From: Nitrospirota bacterium
GTDB lineage: Bacteria; Nitrospirota; UBA9217
Assembly (NCBI GenBank): GCA_963740085.1
Contig: CAVUCU010000001.1
Span: 1,120,001-1,184,000 of the forward strand
Reading direction: 5' to 3'
DNA: 64,000 bases
In this document: in pieces, positions 28,438 through 57,271 of the stretch
Numbering within the stretch: the first letter of the stretch is position 1
Layout: each line of letters begins with the position of its first letter
Position numbers and translations under genes: made by a program
Notes under the pieces: generated by a model
Database searches by the model: none
Seen by the model: only the letters and a program-made list of their open reading frames with translations
Told to the model about the DNA's origin: nothing

Positions 28438-28678
28438 GGCACGCCTCCTGGTTCAGGATCACTTTCGTTCTTATACGGAATACTTTAACAAAAGTCTTCC
28501 AATAGTGCAAGGATCATTAACGTGAAATGAAAATGCGGCTTGCTTTGGTCCGGGTAACTTGATATCATTGGGATACGATCATGATGCTTTACCATGCATC
28601 AGCTGTGTTCAACATAACCGGACAGGAAGATGAATAGAATGAGCATGACATCGTTCGCTCGCAATTTTTAAGGAGCAC

Positions 28679-31214: not shown

Positions 31215-32511
31215 TTACCTCTTCAGCTGTTCGTGGCACTGGACGCAGAGATCCATGCCGAATTGAAAGTGGGCCAGGCGTTTCTGGTCAGATCCGTGCG
31301 ATTTATGGCAGCTCAGGCAGTCGAGCGTCAGGTTCTTGTTCCTCGGGTCTATTGCCTTTTCTCCTATCGGGTGCGACGAATGATGCGTGAAGTCGTGACA
31401 GGTGCTGCAGAGCGCAATGACGTCCTTGTCATTCAGCAGGAGGACATTATCGGAGGCATGAGGAGAATGGCAGGTCGTGCACATCCCTTGCTCCACGGGA
31501 ACGTGCTTGGAAAGGGCCTTCTCCTGTCTCGTGATCGTGTCCTTGTGACAACCACCGCAGACGTCCTTCATCGAGTCCCCCTATCAGGAGGGACGCCTGC
31601 TTCGAAGCGTGAGGGTTATGACAGTTCAGACAGCCCCGACGGTCCAGCAGGGGCCAGTGGATCCGGTTCTTCGACAAGGCCGAATTGACCATGTCGTAGT
31701 GGCATCCGCGGCAGAGCTCAAAGCCGGTCTTCTTGGTCTTGAACGGCGTTGTTGAGGTGGGCTCTTCGTGACACTGGTTGCACAACTTATTTGCGACCGG
31801 GGGGTGCACGGTATCATAGAGCAGGGAGCTCCGCGATGACCCGTGCGGATTATGGCACGTCGTGCAACGGGCATTGCCGACAGGATAATTCGCATGGGCT
31901 TTGAGGAAGAACGGCTTGTCGGTCTGATGGCAGTCCTTGCAGAGGCCGGGGACGTCCTTCTTGAGGAGATGAAGGGCCGCGGTCGACGCGTGGGGATCGT
32001 GGCACGTCAGGCATCCCGATGACACGGGCTTGTGCTTGCGTTTCGCCTTGTCTATTGCGTCGCCCAGTTCCTTGTGGCACTCAACGCAGAGTTTGTTGCC
32101 GGCAAGTTTGAGATTGTACTTGTTGGCCGCCGCGTGGGGGTCATGACATTTGACACAGCCTCCCTCTGCAACGACCTTGTGACTGCTCTTCGCCTTTTCG
32201 GGTATTACCGCCGCATGGCACGTATAGCATATCTTGCTGGTATCGGCCGTCAGAAGCTTGGCGTGTGAGGAGGTATGCGGGCTGTGGCATCCGATGCATT
32301 CTCCCTGCCTGAGCGGCGTATGCACAAAGGCGTTCTTCAGCTTTTCGGCGAACGTCGTGTGACAGCCAAGGCAGATCTTACCCTCGGCCCCGGGTTTCAG
32401 CTTGAAATTGTCCTTCGCATCCGAGCGGATGACGGCGGCCGCAAGAGAACAGGTGACGATGAGCAGTATCAAAACGATCCTGGTTTTCATATTCGACGTT
32501 ATCCTTTTCAT
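31215..32511 (-). CDS. 16-heme cytochrome c (one frameshift near 31575)
   Basis: 11 CxxCH motifs in ORF 31447-32532 and 5 in ORF 31215-31571; the ATG at 32511 overlaps the upstream stop. Confidence 0.88.
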
Positions 32512-34490
32512 TGCTTGCCCACGATATGGCATGTCTCACAGGACCGTGCAGCAAAGGGCGGATGCATCACCTGTTTGAAAAATTTCGGGTCCTTGGACGT
32601 ATGGGGATCATGGCAGTGTCTGCAATCCATGCTTTTCGGGTCGATCCCGATATGGGACTTCACGAACGAATCACGGGTAAAATCGTGACAGTTGCCGCAC
32701 AGTTCCGGTACCTTCTGGACGAGCAGGGTGGTCTGGGCCGAGAAATGGGGCATATGGCACGTCAGACAGTTCCCTTCGGCTGGAGAATGCACATTTTCCT
32801 TCCCCATCCTCTCTTTCATGTCCTTGTGGCAGGTCAGGCAGAGGTCCGGGCTCTGCGCCAGAAGAAGACTTTTCAGTTTCGACTTGTGAGGACTGTGGCA
32901 CTTCGTACACTCTCCGCCCGTGACCGGAGCATGCTTGCTGGCGCCTTCCTTAAGCGCTTTCTCCAGGTCAGGGTGGCAGGTGAAGCAGATCGCGTCCTGT
33001 TTTTGCACGAGCATCCCGCCGATGTTGCTGCCGTGCGGGTCATGGCAGGTGAGGCAATCGCCCGCGACGAATGGCGGATGATTGGTCCCCCCGACCTCCT
33101 CTTTCATGAGGTCGCCGTGGCACTGCTTGCAAAGATCGGAGCCCGAGGCCTTCAGGATCTTCGGAATGTCGGAGCCGTGGGGATTGTGGCACGCGTTGCA
33201 CTGGCCACTGGTCACCGGCTGATGGGTATAATTCCTCGCAAATTTCAGTTCCGCGTCGGAATGGCAGGAGTAGCAGACCGTGTCCATCCTGTTTTTCAGC
33301 ATATTCTGGAAATTCGAGCCATGGGGATTATGACAGGAGGTGCACATATCCGCGTCGAACGGCGAATGGGGGCTCTTGCTTTTCTTAGATTCTTTCGTCT
33401 TTTCATGGCAGGTAAAACAGAGCTCACCGTCCTTTGCCAGAAGCAATTTCTCGTTCTTGGCGGCATGGGGTGCGTGACAGGTCAGGCAGCCCTTGCCGGT
33501 GGTGACCGCGGCATGGGAGACGGCTGTCGTTTCTCCCTTGTCGGGATGACAGCTGAAACACAGCTTGTTGCCGGCATCGGCAAGGAGCTTCGAATTCTCC
33601 GAATCATGGGGATTGTGGCAGGAAAGGCACATGCCGCCCTGGAACGGCGCGTGTTCGATCTTGCCGCCGGCCTTGAGCCCGGCCTGATCGTGGCACTGAT
33701 AACAGAGCTCCCCTCCGCTGAGCGTCGTATCGAAGGGCTTATCGGAGGTTGCGGGCTTGTGACACATGTCGCAGCTCACCGCAGCCATGGGGTTATGCAC
33801 ACTTGTCTTCAGGAGCTTGGCCTGTACCGAAGAATGGGGGTTGTGACACGTTGTACAGGTCTTGCTGCGAACAGGATACCCGCCATGCGCCTTCTTGAAG
33901 GGTTCCTTCTCGCTGTCGTGACACGCCAGGCAGAGCGCAGGTTCTGCGGTCTTCAGCAGGTTCGCCTCGTCGGAGCCATGGGAAACGTGGCATACGCTGC
34001 ATCCGCCGGTCTGCAGGGGCTTATGCACCACTTTCTTTTCGAACTGTTCCCTTGCGTGGCACTGATAGCAGAGGTCGGTCCCTTCGGCTTTGAGCAGGTG
34101 GTCCGACTGCGATGCATGCGGGTTATGGCAGAGCGCGCATTGCCCGTTCTTCAGCACGCTGTGGACATGCGCCTTGGTCAAGCCGAGCTTCTCCTGGCTG
34201 TGGCAGGGGAAGCAGACCTGGTTGCCGACGCCCTTGAGAATGAGCTTGGGGACGATCCCGTGGCGGAGGTGACAACTTTCGCATTTCTTTTCTTTCGCCA
34301 CCGGATGGACATACTTCATCGAAAAATATTTTTGCTCGAATTTGGTATGGCAGTCGAGGCAGTCCTTGCGGGCGAACGTCTGTCTGTTCAACGAGGGGCC
34401 GCACGAGCTCAGGAATATCGATCCTGCAAGGACAATAAGCGCTGCCGCGGCGGCAACGGCATAGATACGGTTTTTCATGAGTGGGACCAT
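32508..34490 (-). CDS. 26-heme cytochrome c, probable lipoprotein
   Basis: 26 CxxCH motifs counted in paired CxxCH..PH / CxxCH repeats; lipobox LSSC. Confidence 0.93.
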   Translation of the reverse strand: MVPLMKNRIYAVAAAAALIVLAGSIFLSSCGPSLNRQTFARKDCLDCHTKFEQKYFSMKYVHPVAKEKKCESCHLRHGIVPKLILKGVGNQVCFPCHSQEKLGLTKAHVHSVLKNGQCALCHNPHASQSDHLLKAEGTDLCYQCHAREQFEKKVVHKPLQTGGCSVCHVSHGSDEANLLKTAEPALCLACHDSEKEPFKKAHGGYPVRSKTCTTCHNPHSSVQAKLLKTSVHNPMAAVSCDMCHKPATSDKPFDTTLSGGELCYQCHDQAGLKAGGKIEHAPFQGGMCLSCHNPHDSENSKLLADAGNKLCFSCHPDKGETTAVSHAAVTTGKGCLTCHAPHAAKNEKLLLAKDGELCFTCHEKTKESKKSKSPHSPFDADMCTSCHNPHGSNFQNMLKNRMDTVCYSCHSDAELKFARNYTHQPVTSGQCNACHNPHGSDIPKILKASGSDLCKQCHGDLMKEEVGGTNHPPFVAGDCLTCHDPHGSNIGGMLVQKQDAICFTCHPDLEKALKEGASKHAPVTGGECTKCHSPHKSKLKSLLLAQSPDLCLTCHKDMKERMGKENVHSPAEGNCLTCHMPHFSAQTTLLVQKVPELCGNCHDFTRDSFVKSHIGIDPKSMDCRHCHDPHTSKDPKFFKQVMHPPFAARSCETCHIVGKQ

Positions 34491-34513: not shown

Positions 34514-36220
34514 TTAATCTTTCAGATACACCTTAATATCGGCGCTGCTTCTGAGCTTTGCGACCCAGTCGGCAAGCCCTGCCTGGACGTGTTCACGATA
34601 CAACTGCTTTGCGATCGGCTCCCTGACCGTGAGATAGTCCTCGGTCTCCGGAGGGAACACGGACACGACGGAAATGACATAGAAATAGCCTTCCGGGCTC
34701 TCGTACAGCCTGAAATCCCCGGCGCCCGCTCCCGACAGGGCGGCCTTGAGGCCCTCGTCCAGTTCCGTTGTCACGAGGATCGTTCCGTTCAACTTCAGGA
34801 GTCCCTCTGCATCCTTGGCAACCTGCCCGCCAGCGTTTTTTTGTATCCAGGAAAGCTGGTCGCCTGCCCGGAGTTTTTGCATGGCATCCTCCGCGTCGCT
34901 CCTTTTCTTGAAAACGACGCTGTCCAGCTTCATCGACTCGGGCGACGTGTAGTCGGCGCGGTGGCCTTCATAATATGTCTTGATCTCCGATTCCATGACC
35001 TTGATATCAGGCAGAACGACCTTCTGCACAAACATGCCGAAGACCAGGGAGTTCTCGTAGGTCCGGACCAGGACGCCATACGCCTCGGTCTTTTCAATGC
35101 CTTCGAGCTTTGCCTCTTTCACGAGGACCTTTCTCTCTATCAGCCCGTCCAGGACATCATATTTTTGAGCTTTCAGCTCTTTCTTACCGATGGCGCGTTC
35201 GACACCGTGAAAGTATTTCCGCTGCACTGCCGCGGCCAGGTCCGACACCTTTATCTGTTCGTCGCCCCCGATGACGGTGATCACACGCTCATCTTTTAAT
35301 AACTTGTCGAACTCGTCGACCGAGGCCCCCAGGTCAAGGCTGTCGAGCAGTTTCGTGTCGGTCTTGGCGAGCTTCGTTTTCAGGGTTTCGATGAATTGTT
35401 GTGATGCCTCCGCTTTCTTGAGCCGGAGCGCCTCCTGCGCGGCCCATTCCCTCTTGTCCGGAGACTCCTCGCGGCGGGTGTCCTCCAGCTTCACGAGCAC
35501 ATATCCCCCGGGCACGGATATGACCGGGCTTACGGAACCCGTCCCCATCGTAAGAAGCGCGTCGCCGATCGCAGGGATGGTCTCGCTGCCTTTCATATAG
35601 CCGCCTTCTATTATCCCCTTCTTTGTCTTGCCCTTGCTGGCGGCAACGGCCTTGTCCGCAAGCTTGTCAAAACTGCCGCCTGCCCTGACCTCCGTCTCCA
35701 TGTGCTTCGCATCAGCTTCATTCGGGAACAGGACCGACTCGAACTTCCATTCCCTGATGGCTTTTTCATAGAGATTCTCAACCACGCTTTCATCGGCCTT
35801 CACGTCCTTTACCGCCTGCTTCATGAGAAGGGTTCTCAGGGCCTTTTGGGAGTAGTTCTCCACCTCTTCCCTGACCTCCGGCAGTTCGTTCAGCCCGATC
35901 CTCTTTGCCTCCTGCACAATAAGCCGCGCGTCGATCATGCGCTTCAACAGGCCGGCATAATCGATCCGCCCCGGTTTTTTCTCATCGGCCTTTTTCACGG
36001 CCGCCATCTCGTCTGCGTTTTCCTTTGCCTCTGCCATCTGAGCGTGCAGGGCGGAAATTTCCTGCTGATACTCTTCCCGGGTGATGGGTTCGCTGTTCAC
36101 CATTGCCACGGTTTCCTTGCCGTCGATAAGGGGAAGTTTGTGCGTTGCTACACATGCCGTCGTTCCCGCCATCAGGACAACAAGCAACAGAAGACCGAAC
36201 CGTGACGCAATGCTATTCAT
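34514..36220 (-). CDS. oscH: SurA/PpiC-type peptidyl-prolyl isomerase chaperone lipoprotein (OscH-like)
   Basis: VAMVNSEPIT SurA-like N-terminus, two rotamase-like regions (GSVSPVI...GYVLVKL), C-terminal LRSSADIKVY; position in the cluster. Confidence 0.75.
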   Translation of the reverse strand: MNSIASRFGLLLLVVLMAGTTACVATHKLPLIDGKETVAMVNSEPITREEYQQEISALHAQMAEAKENADEMAAVKKADEKKPGRIDYAGLLKRMIDARLIVQEAKRIGLNELPEVREEVENYSQKALRTLLMKQAVKDVKADESVVENLYEKAIREWKFESVLFPNEADAKHMETEVRAGGSFDKLADKAVAASKGKTKKGIIEGGYMKGSETIPAIGDALLTMGTGSVSPVISVPGGYVLVKLEDTRREESPDKREWAAQEALRLKKAEASQQFIETLKTKLAKTDTKLLDSLDLGASVDEFDKLLKDERVITVIGGDEQIKVSDLAAAVQRKYFHGVERAIGKKELKAQKYDVLDGLIERKVLVKEAKLEGIEKTEAYGVLVRTYENSLVFGMFVQKVVLPDIKVMESEIKTYYEGHRADYTSPESMKLDSVVFKKRSDAEDAMQKLRAGDQLSWIQKNAGGQVAKDAEGLLKLNGTILVTTELDEGLKAALSGAGAGDFRLYESPEGYFYVISVVSVFPPETEDYLTVREPIAKQLYREHVQAGLADWVAKLRSSADIKVYLKD

Positions 36221-36509: not shown

Positions 36510-39500
36510 TCATTGCTGCTCGATCATTTTTCGTATTGCGCTTGCCATGTCAGCCGCAAGTGCATGGACGGTATTGATCCGCCCCCAGTCGAACAGGTAT
36601 ACGGCGTCGTCCCCTTCATTGCGGCTGCTGGACGACCATACGACCTGCTGGTTCCTTCGGTTTATCAGCAGCAGGGAAAATCCAACCTTCGGTTTGCCGG
36701 AACCGACGGCGTGCTCCCGGTAATCCAGGACCCTGCCGGTAAGGATCAGGTCTGCATTCAATTCGCCCGCTATGAGATCGGCGTCCGAAAGGGATATTCC
36801 CTCGTACATGATTATCCGGTAATCGAGCAGTTTCTCTATGATAAGGCCGGGTTCTACGACGGTGAAATGTCCTCCTTTGATAAGCTCTCTCAGGAAATGC
36901 AGCGCCATGATCTCGCCTGCATATTTCCTGCTGCTTTCATTTGTAAAGGGCATTATGGCTATCCGGGGCGGCGCGTCAGCGTCGAGCACGGTCACCGTAT
37001 GCGTCATGCGTTCACCCGGCGTTGCATTTACCGGCTTCCCGAGTGTCACGATGATCGTCTTGTTGTCTTCATAGTGTCTATCGTCAATGAGGGCCAGGGT
37101 GATGGCGCCGGTCGTTTCCCCTGCCCTGATGGTGAGGGGGCCCGGCGTCATGACCCGGTAGTTCTTCCCGTCAACTGCTGTCCCGCTTACTGTAAAGGGC
37201 ACCATCACGTCCTTGCCGTGTACGGCAGAGAGCTGCACGGTCACCACAGCCGAGCCGTTGTTCTCCCGCACTTCCTGTCCCGGCGCAGTGAAGGTCACCG
37301 TGGGCTCGGGGTCGTTGTCGATGATCGTATAGGTATGGACGGTCTGTTTGCCCAGGACCGCGTTGACGGGGTTCGAGAGCGTCACCTCGATCGTCTCGTT
37401 GTCTTCGTGGAGCTTGTCATCGATGATCCCGATGTCGATGGTCTTGGACAGCTCCCCGGGCTCGAAGACGAGCGTGCCGTTTTTGAGGGTATAGTCCGTG
37501 GTGTTCTCTGCCGTACCGCCCGTGATCGCGTATTCCACGCTGGCCCGCTTGCCGCTTGCCTCGCTCAACGATACTTCGATCTTCGCAGGGCCCTTTCCTT
37601 CATCTCCACTGGAGTCCTTCAATGTGAAGGCTACGGCCGGGGGTGGATCGTTGTCTCTGATGGTTATGATGTTGACCGGGTGCGCGCCAAGGGTCGCGTT
37701 CACCGGAGTCCCCATGGTCACGATGATCGTCTCATTGTCCTCGTAGAGGTGATCGTCTATCGGCGTGATGGTGATGGTCCCGCTTTTCTCTCCGGCCTTG
37801 ATGACCAGCGGGCCTGGCGTGATGGTGTAATCGGTCCCTTCCTGCGCTGTCCCGCTCACGGTGAAGGGCACGGTCACGTCCTTGCCGTGTATGGCGGAGA
37901 GCTGCATTGTCACCATTGCCGGCCCGTTGTTCTCCTGCACTTCCTGTCCCGGCGCAGTGAAGGTCACCGTGGGCTCGGGGTCGTTGTCGATGATCGTATA
38001 GGTATGGACGGTCTGTTTGCCCAGGACCGCGTTGACGGGGTTTGCGAGCGTCACCTCGATCGTCTCGTTGTCTTCGTGGAGCTCGTCGTCGATGATCCCG
38101 ATGTCGATGGTCTTGACTGTCTCCCCGGGCTCGAAGACGAGCGTGCCGTTCGTGAGGGTATAATCCTTGTTGTTCTCTGCCGTGCCGCCCGTGATCGCGT
38201 ATTCCACGCTGGCCCGCTTGCCGCTGGCCTCGCCCAGGGATACTTCGATCTTCGCAGGGCCCTTACCTTCATCTCCACTGGAGTCCTTCAATGTGAAGGC
38301 TACGGCCGGGGGTGGATCGTTGTCTCTGATGGTTGTGATGTTGACCGGGTGCGCGCCAAGGGTCGCGTTCACCGGAGTCCCCATGGTCATGATGATCGAC
38401 TCATTGTCCTCGTAGAGGTGATCGTCTATCGGCGTGATGGTGATGGTCCCGCTTGTCTCGCCGGCCTTGATGACCAGCGGGCCTGGCGTGATGGTGTAAT
38501 CGGCCCTTTCCTGCGCTGTCCCGCTCAAGGTGAAGGGCACGGTCACGTCCTTGCCGGAGACAACGGAGAGCTGTACTGTTACCACAGCCGGCCCGTTGTT
38601 CTCCTGCACTTCCTGTCCCGGCGCAGTGAAGGTCACCGTGGGCTCGGGGTCGTTGTCGATGATCGTATAGGTATGGACGATCTGTTTGCCCAGGATCGCG
38701 TTGACGGGGTTCGAGAGCTTCAATTCGATCGTCCTGTCGCCGCGGTAGAGCTTGTCATCGACGATCCCGATGTCGATGGTCTTGGACAGCTCCCCGGGTT
38801 CGAAGACGAGCGTGCCGTTCTTGAGGGTATAATCCTTGTTGTTCTCTGCCGTGCCGCCCGTGATCGTGTATGCCACGCTGGCCCGCTTTCCGCTCGCCTC
38901 GCTCAACGATACTTCGATCTTCGCAGGGCTCTTTCCCTCATCTCCCTGAGACTCCTGGAACAGGAAGTCGACGGCTGGAGGCGGATCATTTTCAACGATG
39001 GTCTCGGTCTGCTGGGTTTGGGCACCCGCGGTCGCGTTTACCGGCGCTTCCATGGTAACGATGATCGTCTTATTGTCCTCGTACAGCTTATTATCCATGA
39101 GGGCCAGGGTGATAGCGCCGGTCGTTTCCCCTGCCCTGATGGTGAGCGGGTTCGGGGTCATGACCCGGTAGTTCTTTCCGTCAATTGCTGTCCCGCTCAG
39201 CGTAAAAGGCACGGTCACGTCCTTGCCGGATGCGGCAGAGAGTTTCAGGGATGCGGTTACCTTTCCCATGTCCTCCTTGACTTCCTGTCCCGGCGCAGTG
39301 AAGGTCACCGTGGGCTCGGGGTCGTTGTCGATGATCGTATAGGTATGGACGGTCTGTTTGCCCGGGACCGCGTTGACGGGGTTCGAGAGCGTCACCTCGA
39401 TCGTCTCGTTGTCTTCGTGGAGCTTGTCATCGATGATCCCGATGTCGATGGTCTTGACTGTCTCCCCGGGCTCGAAGACGAGCGTGCCGTTCGTGAGGGT

Positions 39501-42500
39501 ATAGTCGGTGTTGTTCTCTGCCGTGCCGCCCGTGATCGCGTATTCCACGCTGGCCCGCTTTCCGCTCGCTCCGCTCAACGATACTTCGATCTTCGCAGGA
39601 CTCTTACCTTCATCTCCACTGGAGTCCTTCAATGCGAAGGCCACGACCGGCGGAGGGTCGCTCTCCACAACAGTCACCCGGTGCACCGGGTGCGCGCCCA
39701 GCGTTGCGTTCACCGGGGCCCCTATCGACACAAAGATCACCTTATTGTCCTCGTACAGCTTATCATCCATGAGGGCCAGGGTGATAGCGCCGGTCGTTTC
39801 CCCGGCCTTGATGAAGAGCGGGCCTGGGGTCACGACCCGGTAGTTCTTCCCGTCAATCGCTGTCCCGCTCACCATAAAGGGCACGATCACGTCCTTGCCG
39901 GAGACCGGGGAGAGCTTTACGGATATTGTTATCTCTCCGTCGGCCTCCCTGACGTCCTGTGCCGGCGAGGCGAAGGACACTGACGGGGGAGGGTCGTTCT
40001 CGACAATGGTATAGGTATGGACCGTCTGTTTGCCGAGGACCGCGTTGACGGGGTTCGAGAGCGTCACCTCGATCGTCTTGTTGTCATTGTATATCCTGTC
40101 ATCGATGATCCTCATGTCGATGCTCTTGGACGTCTCTCCGGGCTTAAAGGCAAGCGTCCCGTTTTTCAGGACAAAGTTCCTGCCGTTGACGGCCGTGCCG
40201 CCCGTGACCGCGTACGCCAGCGTGACCTTCCTGCTGCCGGCCGCGCTCAGCGATACAGGGATCTTCGCAAGACCCTTCTTCTCATACCCTGCAGAGCCTG
40301 ACGCGACAAAACTTACAGTTGGAGCCGGCTCTTCACTTGCCGTTGGTTTCGATGCAATATCGGTTTGCCCTGGTAAAGTACGCGTATGCACACGGGTATT
40401 TCCCAGGATTGCGTTGACGGGGTTCGAAAGCGTCACCTCGATCGACTCGTTGTCCTGATGGAGTGTGTCATCGATGCTTCCAATATCGATGGTCTTGACT
40501 GTCTCCCCGGGCTCGAAGACAAGCATGCCTCTTGTCCGCGTATGATCTTTTGTTTGAGCGGCAATACCTCCGGCGATCGCATACTCTATCGTGGTCCTTC
40601 TGCCGCTGACCGTGCTCAGCACTACGTTGATCTTTTCAGGACCCTGCCCCTCTTCACCAGGAGCGTCCTTGGACTGGAAATCAACGACCGGCGGAGGGTC
40701 GCTCTCCACGACAGTCAACCGGTGCACCGGGTGCGCGCCCAGCGTCGCGTTCACCGGGGCCCCTATCGACACGAAGATCACCTTATTGTCCTCGTACAGC
40801 TTATCATCCATGAGGGCCAGGGTGATAGCGCCGGTCGTTTCCCCGGCCCTGATGAAGAGCGGGCTTGGGGTCACGACCCGGTAGTTCTTCCCGTCAATCG
40901 CTGTCCCGCTCACCATAAAGGGCACGATCACGTCCTTGCCGGATGCGGCAGAGAGTTTTACGGATACGGTTACTTTTTCACTCGTCCTCCCTGATCTCCT
41001 GTGCCGGCGAGGCGAAGGTCACTGACGGGGGAGGGTCGTTCTCGACAATGGTATAGGTATGGACCGTCTGTTTGCCCAGGACCGCGTTGACGGGGTTCGA
41101 AAGCGTCACCTCGATCGTCTTGTTCTCATTGTATATCCTGTCATCGATGATCCTCATGTCGATGCTCTTGGACGTCTCTCCGGGCTTAAAGACAAGCGTC
41201 CCGTTTTTCAGGACAAAGTTCCTGCCGGTTACGGCCGTGCCGCCCGTGACCGCGTACGCCACCGTGATAGTTTTACTGCTCTTTGCGTCCAACGATGCAA
41301 TAAGAACAGCGCGTCCAACTGATTCCTTACCCCGGGAAGCGGCTGCGGAAAAAGAAACCGCAGGGGGAAGATCGTTATCAATAATGGTATAGGTATGGAC
41401 GGTCTGTTTGCCCAGGACCGCGTTGACGGGGTTCGAGAGCGTCACCTCGATCGTCTCGTTGTCTTCGTGGAGCTTATCGTCGATGATCCCGATGTCGATG
41501 CTCTTGGACAGCTCCCCGGGCTCGAGGACGAGCGTGCCGTTTTTCAGGGTGTAGTCCCTGTTGTTTGCCGCAGTACCGCCCGTGACCGCATACTTTACCG
41601 TAATTCTTTTTCTGCTTAGGGCGCTCAGCGCGACGTCGATCCTCGCGGGCGTTACGCCTTCATCCCCGCTGGATTCCTTCATTAAAAGGCAACGGCAGGG
41701 GGCGGATCGCTCTCAACAACGGCCAGGCGGTGCACCAGGCTCTTACCTGGCGTTGCATTGACGGGCTTCCCGAGGGTCACGATGATCGTCTTGGTGCCAT
41801 CATCATATTGCTTATCGTCAATGAGGGCCAGGGTGATTGCGCCGGTGATCGTGCCTGCCTTGATCGTGAGCGGGTTGGGGGACATGATCCGGTAGTTCTT
41901 CCCGTCAACTGCTGTCCCGCTCACGGTAAAGGGCACGATCACGTCCTTGCCGGAAACAACAGAGAGCTTTACTGATACGCTTACTTTTCCCGCGTTCTCC
42001 CGCACTTCCTGTCCCGGCGCAGTGAAGGTCACCGTGGGCTCGGGGTCGTTGTCGATGATCGTATAGGTATGGACCGTCTGTTTGCCCAGGACCGCGTTGA
42101 CGGGGTTCGAGAGCGTCACCTCGATCGTCTCGTTGTCTTCGTGGAGCTTGTCATCGATGATCCCGATGTCGATGGTCTTGGACAGTTCCCCGGGCTCGAA
42201 GACGAGCGTGCCGTTTTTGAGGGTATAGTCCGTATTGTTCTCTGCCGTGCCGCCCGTGATCGCGTATTCCACGCTGGCCCGCTTGCCGCTTGCCTCGCTC
42301 AACGATACTTCGATCTTCGCAGGGCTCTTTCCCTCATCTCCACTGGAGTCCTTCAGCACAAAGGCTACGGCCGGGGGAGGATCGTTGTCTCTGATGGTTA
42401 TGATGTTGACCGGGTGCGCGCCAAGGGTCGCGTTCACCGGAGCCCCCATGGTCACGATGATCGTCTCATTGTCCTCATAGAGGTGATCGTCTATCGGCGT

Positions 42501-44513
42501 GATGGTGATGGTCCCGCTTTTCTCTCCGGCCTTGATGACCAGCGGGCCCGGCGTGATGGTATAATCGGTCCCTTCCTGCGCTGTCCCGCTCACGGTGAAG
42601 GGCACGGTCACGTCCTTGCCGTGTATGGCGGAGAGCTGCATTGTCACCATTGCCGGCCCGTTGTTCTCCTGCACTTCCTGTCCCGGCGCAGTGAAGGTCA
42701 CCGTGGGCTCGGGGTCGTTGTCGATGATCGTATAGGTATGGACCGTCTGTTTGCCCAGGACCGCGTTGACGGGGTTCGCGAGCGTCACCTCGATCGTCTC
42801 GTTGTCTTCGTGGAGCTCGTCGTCGATGATCCCGATGTCGATGGTCTTGACTGTCTCCCCGGGCTCGAAGACGAGCGTGCCGTTCGTGAGGGTATAATCC
42901 TTGTTGTTCTCTGCCGTGCCGCCCGTGATCGCGTATTCCACGCTGGCCCGCTTGCCGCTGGCCTCGCCCAGGGATACTTCGATCTTCGCAGGGCCCTTAC
43001 CTTCATCTCCACTGGAGTCCTTCAATGCGAAGGCTACGGCCGGGGGTGGATCGTTGTCTCTGATGGTTGTGATGTTGACCGGGTGCGCGCCCGGGGTCGC
43101 GTTCACCGGGGTCCCCATGGTCATGATGATCGACTCATTGTCCTCGTAGAGGTGATCGTCTATCGGCGTGATGGTGATGGTCCCGCTTGTCTCTCCGGCC
43201 TTGATGACCAGCGGGCCTGGCGTGATGGTGTAATCGGCCCTTTCCTGCGCTGTCCCGCTCAAGGTGAAGGGCACGGTCACGTCCTTGCCGGAGACAACGG
43301 AGAGCTGTACTGTTACCACAGCCGGCCCGTTGTTCTCCTGCACTTCCTGTCCCGGCGCAGTGAAGGTCACCGTGGGCTCGGGGTCGTTGTCGATGATCGT
43401 ATAGGTATGGACGATCTGTTTGCCCAGGATCGCGTTGACGGGGTTCGAGAGCTTCAATTCGATCGTCCTGTCGCCGCGGTAGAGCTTGTCATCGACGATC
43501 CCGATGTCGATGTCTTTGGACAGCTCCCCGGGTTCGAAGACGAGCGTGCCGTTTTTGAGGGTATAGTCGGTTTTGTTCTCTGCCGTGCCGCCCGTGATCG
43601 TGTATGCCACCGTTACTTTCCTGGGGCTGGGCGCGCTCAGCAGGACAGCTATTTTGGCGGGTGACACGCTTTCATCCCTGTCCAGCCTCCGCAACGCAAA
43701 ATTCACGAAAACGTCCCGAAGGCCGACCCCGGTCACCGGCGAGACATAGTCGACCCTGGGTTTGAATTTCCCTTCGCTCTCGTCACTATCGCTCTCAACA
43801 CCGGAGGCAAAGCCGGCGAGGGAACCCGCAAGCTCGGCCGTAGCCTTATCAAGCAGGACCTTCGGATCTTCGATCCGGCCAATGCCGAGAAGGCCCGGCG
43901 AGTCATCGCCGGACAGGGTGACGCTGTGGGCCCATTTTATCTCCGGGTTTTCCCCGGTCGAGACCAGGCGGGCAGAGAGGGCAAGTTTCGGGGGGTCCTT
44001 TTCATTGTAAAGCTCAAGATCGGTAATAAGCACTCCTGCTGCTCCGCCATCCTCCTTGAATACACGGGCATTCACCGAGCTTATACTTCCGGTATCGCGC
44101 ATGCGGATTTTTTCCATCAAACGATCCAGGTCCGCCTGCGCCATGACCTCCAATCCCTGGCCTTTCAGTTTGTCCAATAAGGCCCGATGTATCTCAGCCA
44201 GCGGAGCGGACGAGTTGCTCAGGTTCGCGATGGGTAAAACCGCGACCCGGCCGATATGGTCCACGCGAATGTCTCCGGGCGCGGGTCCTTTCACGGCCGC
44301 GCACCCCAGAAGGAGCAGAAGAACCGCGCACAGGACCGCAACAGGCATGCGGAACGTCCTTTCCCGCAGGTCCCTGGTGCGTTCGCGATCATGTTGGAAG
44401 TGGTCAGGCATTATTTTCATACGGCGGCCAACGGGCCGGTCTTCGATACCGTTATTATTTTCCGAGAGGTCCTGGAGGGTTCGAGAAATAGCGTGTGCGA
44501 AAGATGAGAACAT
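36510..44513 (-). CDS. Giant lipoprotein (about 2600 aa): CsgG/DUF799-like domain, about 20 Calx-beta repeats, second CsgG-like domain; OscG-like; split by two single-base frameshifts (about 41683 and 40978)
   Basis: Lipobox LLGC; RVAVLPIANLS and RIAIMPFTNES domains; ~111-aa repeats with GTA..DY...GTLVF.PGE..KTI.I.IIDD..HEDNET...L.NP.NA. Confidence 0.85.
37261..43610. repeat. Near-identical 1.6-kb intragenic duplication (37261-38876 and 41995-43610), built from two-domain units of about 669 bp
   Basis: Matching ends at a constant offset of 4734 bp. Confidence 0.85.
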
Positions 44514-44687
44514 GGTTCTTTCTTAAATAAGTTGAAAAAGCCTAAAAACTGCAGACCAGCCAACAAAAAGCCGAAGCTTTGACACGGATAAAAGCCGACA
44601 AGAAAGATGATTTTCACTGATACGTCAAAGCATTCTCAGTGCGAATCATAGCGCGGCCTTTGCCGCAACCAAAATGCAAGACATCCT

Positions 44688-45032
44688 GCCACCAAAGCCA
44701 CAAAAAATATATACCTCTTAATTTTATGGCTCTTTCGCATTTTAGTTGAAAACAAGTTATCAATAAGCATTAACAAGGGAATCATTCCACCTAAACACAA
44801 ATCCGTTTTCGCGCAGAGACGCAGAGGCGCGAAGAAAGGATAAAATAAAAATGATCACAAAAACTTTTATCTAGAACCTTCTATTCCAGCATTGAAGCAT
44901 TCATCAGGCATCTTCTGCCGTTTTTCTCTGCGTACTCTGCGGCTTTGCGCGAGAAAGACGTTTGTCGTTTCTTTTCAACTTATTTACGAATGAACCATTT
45001 TGTTATTATGTGCTTTTTGTGCCTTTTGTGGC
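44688..45032. repeat. Nested periodic-arm inverted-repeat elements
   Basis: Outer gccaccaaagccacaaa ... tgtgctttttgtgccttttgtggc; inner tcgcgcagagacgcagaggcgcgaag ... ctctgcgtactctgcggctttgcgcga. Confidence 0.65.
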
Positions 45033-45079
45033 CATGTTCCATCCGTTTATCTTAGGGGACAGCATGGCCGCTCATCCGA

Positions 45080-45673
45080 TCAAAAAAGTTTATTCAGGAC
45101 GTCGATGACGGCCGCCCGGGTGACGTCGTCCATCGGCCGCCCGCCTCCGCCAAAGAGCCGGTCCCCGGCGGTTATGCCGCCCTGGGTGGAAGACGCGGTC
45201 CATACCACCTTTCCGGTCTGCGTCTCGATCATCTGAACGCTGAGGGAAACGATATTTGCGGACGTCGTGCTTGAACGCACCTCTCCGTACTCCCGCACGA
45301 CCCCCGTTATGACGGCGTCGGCCTTGACAATGCCCCCCAGTTTTACGGCATCCTCAGCCGAGGGAGCGGACGATTTCTCGATCCCCGCCCGCACCATGCC
45401 CCGCGCGACCTCTCCCGCGGGAAGCACGTAGAGGGAGCCGGTAGACAGCAGCATGTTCATGAAAACATCCCTGACCCTGCTTGACGCAAGAGGCTCTTTT
45501 GTGAGATTTTCGAACGGCATGACCGCGACGATCCGCACCGACGCCAGATCGAAGTTCGGATCATGATAGACCTCGAGCCCGGAACGCGACGCGCACGCTG
45601 ACAGGAAAACCAGCAGCAGGGAAAGCATGATCGGCACGGACTTTCGGAACCGGCCCGATGTCTCAATCTTCAT
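45080..45673 (-). CDS. CsgG/DUF799-like lipoprotein (OscF-like)
   Basis: Lipobox LSAC; VAVMPFENLT, ADAVITG.V.EY and TGKVVW motifs; position in the cluster. Confidence 0.8.
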   Translation of the reverse strand: MKIETSGRFRKSVPIMLSLLLVFLSACASRSGLEVYHDPNFDLASVRIVAVMPFENLTKEPLASSRVRDVFMNMLLSTGSLYVLPAGEVARGMVRAGIEKSSAPSAEDAVKLGGIVKADAVITGVVREYGEVRSSTTSANIVSLSVQMIETQTGKVVWTASSTQGGITAGDRLFGGGGRPMDDVTRAAVIDVLNKLF

Positions 45674-45865
45674 ATTATTTCCAATAACCCGCAGGATAGA
45701 AGCAGCACCCACCATGTTGATCGTGAACAATCTCTCTTACCTCCTGTTCGTTAATGTCCGTTTCATATAAACCAGCCGCTGAAAATATTCCTTGTTATAA
45801 AGAGCGCACGGATTTTTCAATGTTCTCCGTGGTTATATCTTGCGGCTGCAATTACCATTGTATCA

Positions 45866-46033
45866 CCTAACCCGGACAATCCGGAACTAAAATAATGAAA
45901 CCAAAAGGCGTCTCGCGCAGAGCCGTAGCCTGCACTTGCGTGAGCGCGGCCATAAACCAAGCTCGCAGAGAACAACAAAAAAAATAGAGCCGCGATTCAT
46001 GTCTTTCTCGGCGTCTCTGCGCCTCAGCGGGAA
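45866..46033. repeat. Periodic-arm element; inverted copy of the 59.9-60.3 kb unit
   Basis: aggcgtctcgcgcagagccg...aagctcgcagagaacaac and tctttctcggcgtctctgcgcctcagcg are reverse complements of the 60 kb repeat arms. Confidence 0.7.
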
Positions 46034-46202
46034 GATGCCTTATGGATCTTGACGTGATAGAACAATAAAAGAAAAAAATGAACTGAATATCTACAAATTA
46101 AAATAAAAATGCATTGACGCTTTCAGGCTCTTCTATGTGCCTTCCATGCTTTCTGTGGCAAAAGATTCTTGCCATTGTGAGTAACCTTTGACCTATTAGC
46201 TT

Positions 46203-48452
46203 CTAAAAATACGCCCTCAGGTTCGTGCTGAATATTTTTGAAGCCGATCTGCCTTCGTCCGACTTGCTCAGGGTATCCTGATACGCGGCGGCCAGGTAGG
46301 TGGTCCGGGTGATCTTCCACGTCAGGGACGGACCCCAGGTCCTGACCCTTGAGTTCTTTTCGGACTCCCAGCTCTCGGTATACGCAAAGGAGAACTCGAG
46401 AGACCCGCCGAAGAACGGCGACCAGTTGAACGCATAATTCTGCGACCTCTTGGTCGTAGTCCTGGGTGGCTACGGTGCTCATACCGGCGACGAGGTAGAG
46501 CGTATCGACGGGATGATAGGTGGCCGTCTCATCGGTCCTGTCGGTCCACGTTATAGATTCCTGCGTGCCCCCTCCTGAACTGTGCGTCCTCGACGAATCA
46601 TAATTGAAGCTCAGGTTCAGCGTACGGTGGGGCTGAATACTCGCTCCGGCGATGAGGTCCGTGCTGTCCACGCGTTCGCCCGTGTCCTGGTCCTTAAAGG
46701 TCATCCCTCCCGAGGCCGTCAGGACCACGCCTTGATAGACATCCGCGTGATTATGCAGGAAGACGCTGTTCGTATTGGAACGTCCGCTGGTGGTCTCCTC
46801 AAACCTCCCGCTGTAGGACAGATTGTGGCGGAGCGTCTTGAGGGGGACCGCGTCGAGGGACGCGTCCGCGACATACGCAAAGCCGTGGTCCGTGGGTTCG
46901 GAAAAATCCTCCCTGCCGGCGCGCGCGTTTTCGGAAAAGACCCTGCTGAGACGATGGGACGTTGTCAGCATGTTTGAAAGGGTCCAGCGCTGCTGCCCGG
47001 AAGGCTCCTGCTTGGAGAGAAAATATGAGAGATTGTAATACAGGTTCGCGCTTTCCAGAAGCAGCGCCTTGCCGTCGAAATTATAGGTCTGGGTCGAAGT
47101 GGTCTTCTTCCCCCTTGCCTGCTCCGCTGATGTGCTCGAAATGGCCTGGATCTCCGTCACGAAGATATCGGGATATCCTGAGGCGCCCTGCACCGCCGGC
47201 GAGAGGGGTTTCACCACGACCTTTATATATCTCGTGTTGACCGATGAAAAGGTGATCTCGAAACGGTTTTCGAATTGCCCGAACGGGGCAGAGGACAGGG
47301 TTGTGTACAGGCTCCAGTTCAGGTTGTCGGAGCTCGTATAGACGTCCCAGGAGAAGGAGCCGGCGATAACCGACGGAAGCTCCCTGTCCACCCAAACCCG
47401 GAGCGTGTTCACATCCTGGGCAAGAGAAAAATCGAGGCCGATGTTCCGTTCCCGCGTGTCTCCTCCGATGATGGACGGCATCCCGATGTTGACCCCGGCG
47501 CTTGTTGTAAGGTTTCCGTCCACCAGCGCGGAATTCGATGCAAGGGCGCCGTCAACAGGCGTATCATCGATGGACGAAAGCCCGGCAAAAGGGCACCAGG
47601 CCGATGTCCAGCGTCCCCGTTCCGCTGACCGAGGTGGTCAATTCATTGTAGCTGACGTTGTAGCTCGTATCGAACGAGACGCCGGTTATGGAAAAAACTG
47701 TTGGCATACTCCGCCCTCCCGACGTGGCTCAGGCTCCGGGTCTCGAGGCCGGACAGCCGGTCGGTGGTAACGATGTAGGTCGGCCTGTACTGCATCGAAA
47801 TAGTGTCGGTCGGCGTATAATTCATGGTAAGACCTGCGTAGTCACGGACGACGTCCTGGGTGGCATGATCGATGTCATAGACATGCGATCGTTCGACCCG
47901 CCCCTCGATGGAGGGAAGGTCCCGTACCGGGGGATACAGGCCCATGATGCCTGAATAGAGCTCGTTGATATTGGTAATTGCCGGCGACCCGGTGGACGAC
48001 GACGTCTCCTCCCGCCGGCTGTATCTGGCTCCGGCTGTGTAGACCGGGGACCTCAGCGTCAGGTCCACCAGCGGCTGGACCCTCGTCAGCGTCGAATCCG
48101 TCCAGACGCCGTCGGTGATCGTTGTGCTGTCTGTTTTGTCAAAAAGGCCGCTCGCATACAGCCTGAGATACGGGTAGAGGGTCTTCGACAACGACAGGTT
48201 GTAGCGCTGGGTGTACGAGTCGGTCTTCGTGTGGCTTGAATTGCCCTGGACGTCCTGGGAATCGGAGGCCAGATTGCTGTATCCGAGGTCCACGTAACCG
48301 CCGATCCCTTCCGCGGCCGCGCTGCAGGGAAAGAGCGAGGCCGAAAGGAACAGAAGCGTTGGAAAGACCACGGCCGCTGCCGCACAACTCCGGAGGACGG
48401 ACCGCCACTGCTGAACGGATCCAGCTGGTCTTGATTTGCGAACAGGATCCAC
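46203..48452 (-). CDS. Outer-membrane beta-barrel protein with inserted beta-sandwich domain (OscE-like); frameshifted near 47.6 kb and 46.45 kb
   Basis: Signal peptide, amphipathic S/T/Y-rich beta strands; the shifted C-terminal frame ends ...STNLRAYF* (aromatic beta-signal) at 46203. Confidence 0.7.
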
Positions 48453-48459
48453 CGGGCTT

Positions 48460-49860
48460 TTACCTCTCCCCCATCATGGCCACCCACTGCGCGTCCACGC
48501 CGATGTCAAGCTCCATGACCGTCTGGTTGCCGATGAGATTGACGCTCTGGAGCGAGTTTTTCCGCGGCACCACCAGGTACAGCTCGTTTTCCTCACCGTC
48601 TATCGCCATGCCGGCTACGCCCTCTCCCGCCGGGATCCGGTCGATCGGCATGTCCAGGCCCGGCTGGTACACCGAAACCAGGGGATCGAACCGCCTGCCG
48701 ACATAGATGCGGTCTGTCCTGGTGTCGACCTTCAAGGCTCTCGCTCCCGTGCCGACGGAGATCCGCTGAACGACGGCGAGCGACGAGGTGTCGATGACCG
48801 AAAGGTATGAGGAGAGCGAATGAATGACATAGAGCCTGTCCCCGTTGCGGTTCAATTGCCCCCGCAGCGGGCCCGCGTCAACGGAGATCGTCGCGGTAAC
48901 CTGTCTCGCAGCGAGGTCGATGATGGAAATGGAATCCGACTGGGTATTGAAGACATAGGCCTTTTTGCCGGACGAATCGACGAGGACCGTGTTCGGTCCG
49001 TTGCCTACATTGATCCGCTCCAGTTCGATGAAGGAAACAGGGTCGATGATGCTCACCGTGTTCGAACCGTTGTTCGCCGTCATCAGGATGCGGCCGTCCG
49101 GCGTGAGCGCCGGCTCCTGGGGACGGTCGCCGGCATTGAGCACTATCCTGTGGATGATCTCGTTGCTGGATACGTCTATGATGTCCACGGAGTCCTCGCC
49201 GGAGAGCGCCACATAGGCCCGTTGCCGAGCCTGGTCGAGGACGATGCCCCGCGGGTCCGCCCCCGTGGCTATGACATCCACAACCCTGCCTGCCTTCTTA
49301 TTGAAGACGGTTATGTCGTTCGAACCCTGATTCACCACATATCCCATAAGGGCCGTGATCGGTTTTTTGGGCCGGTCGAGGGAAAAAGAGGGGCTGAAGC
49401 CGAACCGGTCCCGTATTGCCTCCTTGGGACGCAGTGTTCCTTCCAGGACAGAGGCCCTGCCTTTGCGCACCTCAAAGGAGAACGGCTCCAGCAGCGGCTC
49501 TTCTGGCACGAGCAGGGCGTTTTCCCCTGCTTCTCCCCGGAGAAAGGCCTCATGGGTGCGGAATGCAAGGCCTTTGTACAGACCGGGAGGAACTCTGCCG
49601 GAGGCAACGAGGCGTTGTCTGTTTATCGTACTGACGCTGAATTCGGTTATCGCGAGCGTGAGGGGAAATTCCGTGCCGTCGTCCCGACGCGCGACGATCT
49701 CGCTGAGGTCGAACCTGAGCCGTTCCGCCTCTCCGGGAAGGGGCTCGACATAGAGGAATATCTCCCCTTCCTCTTCAAGGGGCGGCTTCAGGCGGGCGGT
49801 GGTTGCAAAGCAGCCGGAAAGAAATACAACCGTGATGAGAAGAAAATATAAACGTCTCAT
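48460..49860 (-). CDS. oscD: YVTN/YncE-type beta-propeller lipoprotein (OscD-like)
   Basis: Lipobox LSGC; YVVNQGSNDITV, ANNGSNTVSIID and AYVFNTQSDSISIID repeats; position in the cluster. Confidence 0.75.
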   Translation of the reverse strand: MRRLYFLLITVVFLSGCFATTARLKPPLEEEGEIFLYVEPLPGEAERLRFDLSEIVARRDDGTEFPLTLAITEFSVSTINRQRLVASGRVPPGLYKGLAFRTHEAFLRGEAGENALLVPEEPLLEPFSFEVRKGRASVLEGTLRPKEAIRDRFGFSPSFSLDRPKKPITALMGYVVNQGSNDITVFNKKAGRVVDVIATGADPRGIVLDQARQRAYVALSGEDSVDIIDVSSNEIIHRIVLNAGDRPQEPALTPDGRILMTANNGSNTVSIIDPVSFIELERINVGNGPNTVLVDSSGKKAYVFNTQSDSISIIDLAARQVTATISVDAGPLRGQLNRNGDRLYVIHSLSSYLSVIDTSSLAVVQRISVGTGARALKVDTRTDRIYVGRRFDPLVSVYQPGLDMPIDRIPAGEGVAGMAIDGEENELYLVVPRKNSLQSVNLIGNQTVMELDIGVDAQWVAMMGER

Positions 49861-50180
49861 GGGGTTCCTTTCTCAGAAGATCGGTGTAACGTCAAATAGT
49901 AACCACAGAGCGCACAGAGACATATGTAAAATTACTCAAAACCTGTGTTCTCTGTCGTTCTCTTGCTACAAGTAGTTATTCTATAAAAGCAGATTGAGCC
50001 AAAGAATGCACAGAAGATCACATCAAGAATATAAATGATTGAAAACAATAGTGTTTGGGCAATACCTAACTGAATTGGTGATTACGTTAGTCATTTCAAC
50101 TTCTTGTTTTTTTCTGTGTGAATTATGTGCTTTTTATCGCTAACTGCCGTTTACGGGTTTATTTCATTTTCAGCATTTTT

Positions 50181-52106: not shown

Positions 52107-52211
52107 CTCATCACAGCGTAAATGCGGCATTCCAGGTGAATGCCGATACATCTGAATCCAGGGACATTACTCAGTTAAAAATCAAATTCGACTCAACATG
52201 AAAAAAAATTT

Positions 52212-52461: not shown

Positions 52462-52494
52462 AGGTACATACATTATGCTGCGACTAGGTGGATA

Positions 52495-53731: not shown

Positions 53732-53750
53732 TACATCCTCCTGAATTTTG

Positions 53751-55990: not shown

Positions 55991-57271
55991 TTAATCCTTC
56001 GCGTGGCACTTATTGCAAAGCGACCTCTGATAAGAGGCGTAATGCATTGTCGTGCCGTTGTAGGCCGCGGTCGTCTCTGCAACGGTGCGGCCCATCGCGT
56101 ACTTAGCTGCGTTGGCGATCGTGCTTGGGGAGTCAGTGCCCGGCCATACGCCGTCAGCAGCGATGAACTCTCCATCATTGTTCCATCTGGTCATGTGCGC
56201 CCAGCCAGAGGCGTGCGCCCGGTGGCAGGAAAGGCACATGACCCTGTCGACCGTGCCGGCCGGACCGTTGCGATTCGAGCCGTCACTGTTTGCAAGGGCC
56301 TTGAGGGCGGTGATGCTTCTCAAGTTGTCCGTCTGGAAGGGGACGATGGAATCGTACGAGTTGGCCGCTGTCACTCCCGTTGTAAGTCCGCTGCCCAGAT
56401 AGGAGTTGTAGGTGGCGACCTCGGCGGCGCTCAGGCCCTGGTTCACCGGGTGCGTCATCTTCGTGCTGCTGGCCGTATGCATGTCTGGATGGCAGGTTGC
56501 GCACCATTCCGATATGCCGTATCCGTAGGCCACGCGGGTGGGAGCAGCTGTTGTCTCCGCCCTGTTGTAGGTGTCCGGGGCGATTGCGTTAAAAACCACG
56601 GTAAAGGTCTTGCCGCCTGATCCGGCTGTAGAACCCGGACCGCGAAGCAGGCGATAGGAGCCGACTGCCTGGCCCGCTACCGGGTCAGTGCTTGACTTGT
56701 AGGAACCGGAAGCGATGATCGGCGCTCCTTTTACTCCCCAGGTCGGGTTCGTTATTAACCCGATTCTTCTCAGCTTGCCGTGGTTGTCATGGCAGCTGTT
56801 GCACCCAAGGAGAGATGCATTCATGTCTCCGCCAGGAGCAGTCGAGTTCTGTCCATCTGCAACGAAACCGGGAAGGTCCATTGCCACGATGTTGTGGCCA
56901 TGTCTCTCGCCCAGTTCTGTCGAAGAGGAACCCGACCGCGGAGACCACGTATAGGTCTTCAAGAGCCAGCCGAAGTCACCGCCCGGGGTCATCTGAAGCG
57001 GGGGTACGCCTGCGGTGACTGTCGGGGTGAGAATGTGATAGCTTCCTGCCGACGGATTGCCGTGGCAGGATGCGTTGGCGCAGGTGGAGCTTATGTCGCC
57101 GGCGATCAGGAGCGCTGAGGGGCTTTGGCCGTCGTGAATGTTGTGGCAGCCCATGCACTCCGCTACACCGCCGGAATGGAACGCGTAGCTCGTAGCACTG
57201 AGCCCAACGATAAGCAGGGCTGCAGCCAGGGCAACGAGACTACCTTTGACTATTTTATTGACCATCTTCAT
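55991..57271 (-). CDS. omcS: OmcS-like nanowire cytochrome, paralog 1 (intact)
   Basis: AFHSGGVAECMGCHNIH...LQMTPGGDFGW...TRVAYG...CLSCHRAHASG...YQRSLCNKCHAKD; five CxxCH and one CX4CH. Confidence 0.93.
   Translation of the reverse strand: MKMVNKIVKGSLVALAAALLIVGLSATSYAFHSGGVAECMGCHNIHDGQSPSALLIAGDISSTCANASCHGNPSAGSYHILTPTVTAGVPPLQMTPGGDFGWLLKTYTWSPRSGSSSTELGERHGHNIVAMDLPGFVADGQNSTAPGGDMNASLLGCNSCHDNHGKLRRIGLITNPTWGVKGAPIIASGSYKSSTDPVAGQAVGSYRLLRGPGSTAGSGGKTFTVVFNAIAPDTYNRAETTAAPTRVAYGYGISEWCATCHPDMHTASSTKMTHPVNQGLSAAEVATYNSYLGSGLTTGVTAANSYDSIVPFQTDNLRSITALKALANSDGSNRNGPAGTVDRVMCLSCHRAHASGWAHMTRWNNDGEFIAADGVWPGTDSPSTIANAAKYAMGRTVAETTAAYNGTTMHYASYQRSLCNKCHAKD

Follow-up and report, generated by a model that had tools for sequence, protein, structure and literature searches.

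How OmcS-type nanowires are secreted and mounted is treated as unanswered in an excerpted discussion of the subject, which favours a porin-like pathway with helper proteins (PMC13712944). A locus bearing on this question belongs to an uncultured bacterium; among named genomes, its nearest relatives are metagenome-assembled genomes (MAGs) of Nitrospirota. Within a 64,000-nt stretch of its contig CAVUCU010000001.1 (the window), the gene at the position of the secretion lipoprotein OscG encodes two end domains with a long array of Calx-beta domains between them. What is this protein, and what could such an array do in a nanowire secretion system? The best explanation as a whole, to which we assign a probability of roughly 0.7, is an OscG-family lipoprotein of an OscE-F-G module with an inserted and amplified Calx-beta loop or arm.

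The initial annotation described a lipoprotein of about 2,600 residues, between an OscF-like lipoprotein and a peptidyl-prolyl isomerase (PPIase), that contains about 20 tandem Calx-beta domains of about 111 residues. This description held. Pfam Calx-beta (PF03160) was detected in all three open reading frames (ORFs) of the gene (E values of 1e-89, 1e-30, and 2e-164, in 6, 2, and 11 stretches; whole-ORF scores of 297, 106, and 538 bits). A six-frame search of the whole 3.46-Mb genome returned 20 matches, all of them within positions 36975-43706 of the window and all 20 above the 27-bit cut-off. Division of the translation at its linker motifs and a hidden Markov model (HMM) built from the repeats agreed with this count, giving 20 domains of 109-113 residues each. 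The domains abut without gaps, except where a linker of 12 residues, rich in Ser, Thr, and Pro, separates domain 10 from domain 11 (Table 1).

The array repeats in units of two domains, A and B, with a period of 669-672 nt; the repeat families of that period have 9-11 copies each, at 61-99% identity. Tandem Repeats Finder reported no array because the 669-nt period exceeds its 500-nt limit. One A-B unit aligned across both of its domains with the CBD1-CBD2 tandem of the Na+/Ca2+ exchanger NCX1 (3us9; E value of 2.4e-21). The array is free of cysteine and acidic (13.5% Asp plus Glu versus 8% Lys plus Arg), and a regular expression located the acidic motif DD..[YH]EDN[EK] in 15 of the 20 domains. 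The acidic Calx-beta motif binds Ca2+, and the array is probably stiffened by Ca2+. Pfam matches to LapA domains overlap the Calx-beta repeats.

The array also retains traces of how it grew. Two blocks of 1.87 kb within it are segmental duplicates with 95.6% identity and a dN/dS of 0.26. Every domain of the window finds its best match inside its own array (65-99% identity) and not in the array of the close relative L050 (55-76%); therefore, these arrays grow and homogenise within lineages. A fixed hairpin, with ten domains running out and ten running back around the mid-array linker, was considered and rejected: the linker divides the L050 array 12|8, and the array of genome G018 has three long linkers. 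Two linkers in the G018 array (locus L013), one at residues 674-723 of its first ORF and one at 1176-1235 of its second, are 50-60 residues long and hold a hydrophobic stretch (PLIMLAMAG... or PLMMLAMAD...).

As assembled, the gene is divided among three minus-strand ORFs, at 44513-41682 (943 aa), 41682-40978 (234 aa), and 40931-36510 (1,473 aa). The first and third share a common frame, and the shift is limited to the 700 nt between them in the gene. Read through with X at both breaks, it amounts to about 2,663 codons, which encode, in order, a signal peptide with a lipobox, an N domain, the 20 Calx-beta domains, and a C domain, with the domain register unbroken across both breaks. The true start is likely the Met codon at 44348. 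Because the second and third ORFs begin in the middle of Calx-beta domains and the two indels are single bases relative to paralogous copies of the repeat, positions 36510-44513 read, at the sequence level, as one gene split into three frames. The missing base of the first break is placed at 41684-41690. Promoter and terminator scans at both ends of the gene gave nothing above shuffled sequences.

The domains at the two ends had been proposed to be CsgG/DUF799-like. A Pfam scan of the three ORFs found Calx-beta throughout, and neither CsgG nor DUF799 matched the ends above the cut-off. The N domain had no Pfam match; the C domain had only subthreshold matches, to LpoB (PF13036; 16.9 bits versus a cut-off of 22.3) and TolB_N. 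The Pfam CsgG domain was absent from the scans of the ORFs, the end domains, and a short form of the protein. Such short-form relatives, of 376-410 aa, join N directly to C and are 66-68% identical to the window protein in the C domain and 57-59% identical in the N domain. One of them, P0011, likewise fell below the cut-offs for LpoB (21.8 versus 22.3 bits) and for the GNA1162-like family (PF05643; 18.4 versus 25.9 bits).

An AlphaFold2 model of P0011, made from a 71-sequence alignment (pLDDT 81.5, pTM 0.81), contains a strand-helix-helix-helix-three strands-helix fold twice. Foldseek ranked the PelC dodecamers 5t10, 5t11, and 5t0z first for this model (E value of about 2e-9, target TM 0.73-0.83), followed by PelBC (9h80), GNA1162 (4hrv), LpoB, FlgT, the N domain of TolB, and CsgG; the family profile also matched PelC (9h80_C; E value of 4.6e-4). 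Both end domains are thus predicted to have a PelC-like fold by way of the P0011 homologue. Of the original assignment, the fold class (GNA1162, that is DUF799, with LpoB and CsgG) stands, with PelC as its closest member; the Pfam families as such do not.

The array lies between a conserved KFKPxxDYxSP motif and the first strand of the C domain. Within this motif, which belongs to the interdomain linker, residues F204, P206, and S212 are invariant or nearly so in 71 homologues. When the window N and C domains were predicted as two chains, they gave an ipSAE of 0.86, compared with 0.00 for the best of three controls, and the runs agreed in at least 74% of contacts with a partner pLDDT of at least 77. 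The ipSAE mark used is reached by 58 of 80 solved complexes and by 2 of 110 mismatched pairs. The two domains are therefore predicted to pack together as in the form of about 375 aa. Because they are predicted to bind each other, the ends of the array should lie close together. An array that loops out of the interdomain linker is thus likelier than one that keeps its two ends at a distance as a spacer. The stalk of the initial annotation would accordingly be an inserted loop.

The position of the gene and the sequence of its ends both support membership of the OscG family. It lies between an OscF-like lipoprotein and an OscH-like PPIase in a cluster that includes an OmcS homologue. The cluster order is that of an osc cluster: OmcS-like protein, beta-propeller lipoprotein, protein of about 770 aa, GNA1162-like lipoprotein of about 200 aa, and the protein with N and C domains, followed by a SurA-like PPIase, a cytochrome of about 26 haems, a 12-haem cytochrome, and an NHL protein. 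The full order is common to Geobacter sp. AOG1 and Geobacteraceae MAGs, and a near-complete cluster is found in Rokubacteria, Schekmanbacteria, and a MAG labelled Nitrospira japonica. Across many other phyla, too, this position is held by a protein of about 375 aa in which the two domains adjoin. The end domains are homologous to the protein at the OscG position in Geobacter sp. AOG1 (locus L048; E values of 1.5e-38 for the N domain and 3.1e-41 for the C domain). Among five Geobacteraceae/Geobacterales loci, four gave E values of 1e-31 to 4e-35 and the fifth (L054) gave 1e-39 and 2e-37. These Geobacter-lineage forms are 370-451 aa long and have no Calx-beta domains, in line with the earlier statement that OscG of G. 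sulfurreducens is not known to have such an array.

In the excerpted account of the osc operon, OscH acts in folding, OscE, OscF, and OscG act in secretion, and OscD acts in morphology; oscC is GSU2501, and OscG is needed for OmcS secretion in Geobacter (PMC13194489). The entry for GSU2497 says just "lipoprotein" (PMC3495685). Counted on from oscC by the lettering, OscG would be GSU2497. Shen and colleagues, in 2025, are said to have found that OscG binds OmcS.

The OscE-like neighbour is a single ORF of 728-812 aa in relatives (14 loci among the matches listed). A model of the OscE-like protein of L050 (pLDDT 87.3) shows a large beta-barrel into which a beta-sandwich is inserted centrally, with only a generic likeness to PapC, TonB-dependent receptors, and MtrB (TM 0.2-0.33); the sandwich occupies residues 335-441 of the model, in the middle of the predicted barrel (L050:5583-7826). 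In the window, the OscE-like gene is divided between two ORFs, has a garbled C terminus, and gives a weak match to a NedA-like galactose-binding domain (PF22633; E value of 0.0066).

Table 1. Features of the OscG-like gene and its surroundings, in window coordinates.
Feature	Coordinates	Strand	Basis
Whole OscG-like gene, as three ORFs	36510..44513	minus	ORF list, translations
Signal peptide with lipobox LLLGC (Cys71, codon at 44303)	44301..44348	minus	read off translation by eye
N domain, predicted PelC/GNA1162-like alpha/beta fold by homology to modelled short form	43770..44300	minus	58% identical to P0011
Linker motif KFKPRVDYVSP, kept with N domain; array follows directly	43737..43769	minus	alignment of 71 homologues
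Array of 20 Calx-beta domains, as 10 alternating A-B two-domain units of 669-672 nt	36975..43715	minus	Pfam, repeat search, HMM
Sole non-canonical linker of array, TDIASKPTASEE, domains 10/11	40329..40364	minus	domain split, HMM
1.87-kb segmental duplication, copy 1	37014..38876	minus	blastn
1.87-kb segmental duplication, partner copy	41745..43610	minus	blastn
Break 1: against 4 paralogous copies, one base short after a T run; creates stop TAA	41682..41690	minus	alignment to copies
Break 2: against 3 paralogous copies, one base too many; creates stop TGA	40978..40983	minus	alignment to copies
C domain, predicted fold as N domain; first strand RIAIMPF starts at 36965	36513..36992	minus	homology, short-form model
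SurA-like PPIase (OscH-like), directly downstream	34514..36220	minus	Pfam, synteny
OscF-like lipoprotein (GNA1162-like PF05643, LpoB PF13036), directly upstream	45080..45730	minus	Pfam, synteny
OscE-like large outer-membrane beta-barrel, split by indels	46123..48452	minus	relatives, model
Beta-propeller lipoprotein (OscD-like)	48460..49860	minus	Pfam, synteny
OmcS homologue, nanowire subunit	55991..57271	minus	E 2.2e-86 to OmcS 6ef8, residues 31-426 vs 1-407

Further OmcS-like paralogues are located at 52484-53809 (minus strand; frame change near the C terminus, at about 52600-52690), at 50818-52137 (minus strand; open in frame, with neither an upstream start codon nor a signal peptide), and at 28656-29819 (plus strand, opposite to the cluster). 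The 12-haem cytochrome gene at 31218-32532 (minus strand) has an ORF of 361 aa, versus about 430 aa in relatives, and a frame change at about 31565-31573. The OscF-like and OscG-like genes overlap in most relatives; here the spacer between them (44514-45079) is of unusual length (570-730 nt) and has a lower G+C content. Contigs of the public runs X1, X2, and X3 part from the window at 44806-44837, and some join 44835/44996 to about 46007/46187.

Is the extension peculiar to this bacterium? A profile of the short form matched 895 clusters, whose typical member has about 375 aa and no Pfam domain. Among named genomes, N adjoins C without Calx-beta at 50 of 52 loci (frames of 356-468 aa, with two loci split), and the two loci with Calx-beta arrays are both from Nitrospirota. 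Matches spanning about 1,560-1,680 nt could have been taken for an insertion of 150-190 aa; this was ruled out, as they include the upstream OscF-like paralogue. In the order of the window bacterium (64 genomes, one family), the C domain was found at an E value of 1e-20 or lower in 23 genomes. Fifteen of the 26 matches there lie in open frames of 586-1,962 aa (by frame length, domain content aside), four lie in frames of 376-408 aa, and seven lie in frames of 278-425 aa, many of these at contig ends.

Representatives clustered at 50% identity allowed the types of extension to be counted. Among the best 150, both domains were present in 127, of which 97 were short (median of 387 aa). An insert separated N from C in 15 of the 127, and in 14 of these it consisted of 2-14 Calx-beta domains by our own HMM. 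Another form, an extension at the N terminus, was present in 15 of the 127; six of these, when scanned, were Ig-like, PKD, or MBG arrays. When 18 long representatives were scanned with Pfam, 11 had Calx-beta, 6 had repeats of the Ig-like, PKD, Y_Y_Y, or MBG types, and 2 had neither kind. Individual genes in related genomes carry about 25 (G018), 20 (L050), and 7 (G004) Calx-beta domains, and all three are broken by a frame change; those of G022 and G024 are of the short form, and that of G023 is partial. Genome G006, of the same genus as the window bacterium, encodes an intact protein of 1,584 aa (L015:8358-13109) without Calx-beta. It has six MBG_3 repeats and a Big_2 match ahead of the N domain, an extension of an independent type. 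We found no paper that pairs Calx-beta with OmcS, although the osc-cluster survey of Shen et al. 2025 may show variation in OscG length. The initial annotation had raised the possibility that OscG with Calx-beta is common and already described. It does recur, at the same site, and nothing in print was found to describe it; array extension is thus a variation on a known component that arises repeatedly and has apparently gone undescribed.

Taken together, these data suggest a mechanism in which the OscG-like lipoprotein, directed to the outer membrane, would be the third part of a proposed OscE-F-G module that secretes and mounts OmcS-type filaments. Its core would consist of two copies of the PelC/GNA1162-like fold, packed as in the short form. 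If PelC and PelB are a guide, this core and the OscF-like lipoprotein may sit under the large OscE-like barrel. A Calx-beta two-domain unit related to NCX CBD1-CBD2 would have entered the interdomain linker and would then have been amplified to 20 domains by tandem and segmental duplication. The product would be an acidic, cysteine-free loop or arm projecting from the complex, probably Ca2+-stiffened, and could serve, like an adhesin, for reaching or tethering.

The most likely place for the arm to act is the cell surface, the space outside it, or the base of the wire; that it sets a fixed distance is less likely. Four traits bear on this point: arrays differ in length (2 to about 25 domains), repeats of other adhesin types were independently recruited at a different point of the same protein, cysteine is absent, and the repeats evolve in concert. 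With these traits, a tether that contacts the surface or the filament fits better than a fixed periplasmic spacer. More specifically, the loop might leave the periplasm via or beside the OscE-like barrel and serve as a Ca2+-stiffened leash along the first OmcS subunits or to minerals or partner cells. This is a long shot; if true, the leash would hold the wire on the cell and set its presentation, and array length would be under fast strain-level selection, like that of a surface adhesin.

One alternative is that the array remains in the periplasm as a structural element: it would be a strut, fence, or spacer that runs from the outer-membrane complex to the cell wall or the inner membrane. PelC, the closest fold, lies on the periplasmic face of the outer membrane, and titles of PDB entries agree. 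The residue at +2 governs the sorting of lipoproteins, and the lipobox with Ala at +2 fits a lipoprotein in the inner leaflet of the outer membrane; moreover, no export signal is visible for the loop. Arrays that vary from 2 to about 25 domains among homologues are, however, a poor fit to a fixed distance, and other family members instead bear N-terminal arrays of the Ig-like, PKD, or MBG types. Cysteine-free, acidic, concertedly evolving arrays are typical of surface adhesins, and this array has all of these properties, together with strain-level rearrangement. On balance, a periplasmic strut seems doubtful.

A second alternative is that the gene is a pseudogene: the OscG-like gene and much of the osc-type cluster would have decayed, the frameshifts would be genuine, and no full-length protein would be made. 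Comparison with intact relatives by tblastn revealed frame changes elsewhere at the locus, in the OscE-like gene (at about 47681, 47590, and 46446) and in the OmcS-like paralogue and 12-haem cytochrome mentioned above. With the two in the OscG-like gene, this makes seven or eight frame changes within about 27 kb, a pattern that also fits real decay of the cluster. The third OmcS-like copy lacks an in-frame start and a signal peptide. In addition, rpoC, rpoB, and dnaE (open frames of 1,414, 1,365, and 1,187 aa) have no internal stops, which means that errors are not spread evenly through the assembly. At the listed rows for 46457, 47586, and 47681, run X1 has a depth of 0 with the deletion.

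Contigs of four public runs, aligned to positions 40700-49900, give a different picture of several of these sites; those of X3 and X5 represent a small share, come from relatives, and belong to a strain different from that of the window. The extra base at 46457/8 is gone in contigs of X2, X3, and X5, and those at 47586/7 and 47681 are gone in contigs of X3 and X5. The near-identical X1 contig over 47506-47742 differs by two gaps and one other letter. By our own reading, the second break in the OscG-like gene is crossed in frame by two X5 contigs, which equal the window sequence minus one C at 40983, and by one X3 contig, which reads REDMGKV. These contigs may come from other strains or repeat copies, and past the joint other repeat copies fit better; the first break is outside the cover of the listed contigs. 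The dN/dS of 0.26 between the duplicated blocks and the retention of all 20 domains above the Pfam cut-off also argue against decay. The genes at L013, L014, and L050, from similarly contiguous assemblies, are broken at other sites, and that of G006 is intact. The named long-contig MAGs L063 and L064 likewise have a short OscG-like gene that is broken up, into two or three ORFs; thus, frame breaks in OscG-like genes are not peculiar to the window. We conclude that the breaks are probably consensus errors or artefacts of strain mixture, and that a pseudogene is unlikely.

The weakest alternative holds that there are three independent genes: the first would encode an N-terminal lipoprotein that ends after six and a half Calx-beta domains, the second a small protein of two domains, and the third the C-terminal part; although the assembled stops (41682-41684 and 40978-40980) are each followed by a start codon, the mid-domain starts of the last two ORFs, their lack of signal peptides, the continuous domain register, and the existence of full-length homologues in a single ORF (P0020, 972 aa; P0176, 1,481 aa; P0232, 1,936 aa) make it scarcely credible.

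Some further observations weigh against an OscG-family lipoprotein with a Calx-beta arm or limit how it should be read. Both end domains fall below every Pfam cut-off, and the homology to OscG is with proteins of the Geobacter lineage other than G. sulfurreducens OscG. The fold and the N-C packing are predictions, and the alignments behind the packing held full-length short homologues, which may favour an intramolecular interface. The exact count of 20 domains may differ by strain or hold an assembly error, because contigs of other runs join the repeats differently. The linker position, 10|10 here versus 12|8 in L050, gives no support for a fixed hairpin geometry. Finally, the architecture, homology, gene order, recurrence, and dynamics of the array are observed here, whereas ring formation, the location of the arm, and its binding partner are points that we only infer.

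An OscG with an array offers a handle on how nanowires are mounted. The helper OscG has repeatedly gained long adhesin-type arrays, of Calx-beta domains in the interdomain linker or of N-terminal Ig-like, PKD, or MBG repeats, and this repeated gain points to a part of OscG that faces outward or touches the filament. Because the homologues range in array length from 0 to about 25 domains, nature supplies a series in which the role of OscG could be probed. The predicted fold also ties the OscF and OscG lipoproteins structurally to PelC, and this likeness suggests a PelBC-like layout of the OscEFG module.

Several known systems resemble this one in part. The likeness to OscG of G. sulfurreducens is one of place (after an OscF-like lipoprotein and before a PPIase, in the same cluster order), and the window protein is, like OscG, a lipoprotein; it differs from the Geobacter-lineage forms in its length of about 2,660 codons instead of 370-451, owing to the 20 inserted Calx-beta domains. 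PelC is the best structural match of each core domain of the short form and a weak profile match. The window family differs from it in having two tandem PelC-like domains per chain plus a one-domain paralogue, the OscF-like lipoprotein; furthermore, PelC has no repeat array and serves a polysaccharide cargo, whereas the cargo here would be a cytochrome filament. PelC forms a dodecameric ring, and by analogy the OscG-like family may do so as well. The A-B unit resembles CBD12 of NCX1, and the acidic motif and LapA-domain overlaps recall Calx-beta/LapA-type adhesins. Here, however, the array is an internal insert in a lipoprotein and not the body of a type 1 secretion adhesin or the cytoplasmic loop of an exchanger. 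The CsgG/CsgE/CsgF curli system likewise exports an extracellular fibre across the outer membrane with the help of a lipoprotein, and CsgG has an alpha/beta core of the same fold class (4uv2; E value of 4.4e-5), although the window protein has no Pfam CsgG match and the TM values are low (0.23/0.37). In contrast to curli export through CsgG, the channel here is probably a separate protein, the OscE-like barrel, and not the OscG-like lipoprotein itself.

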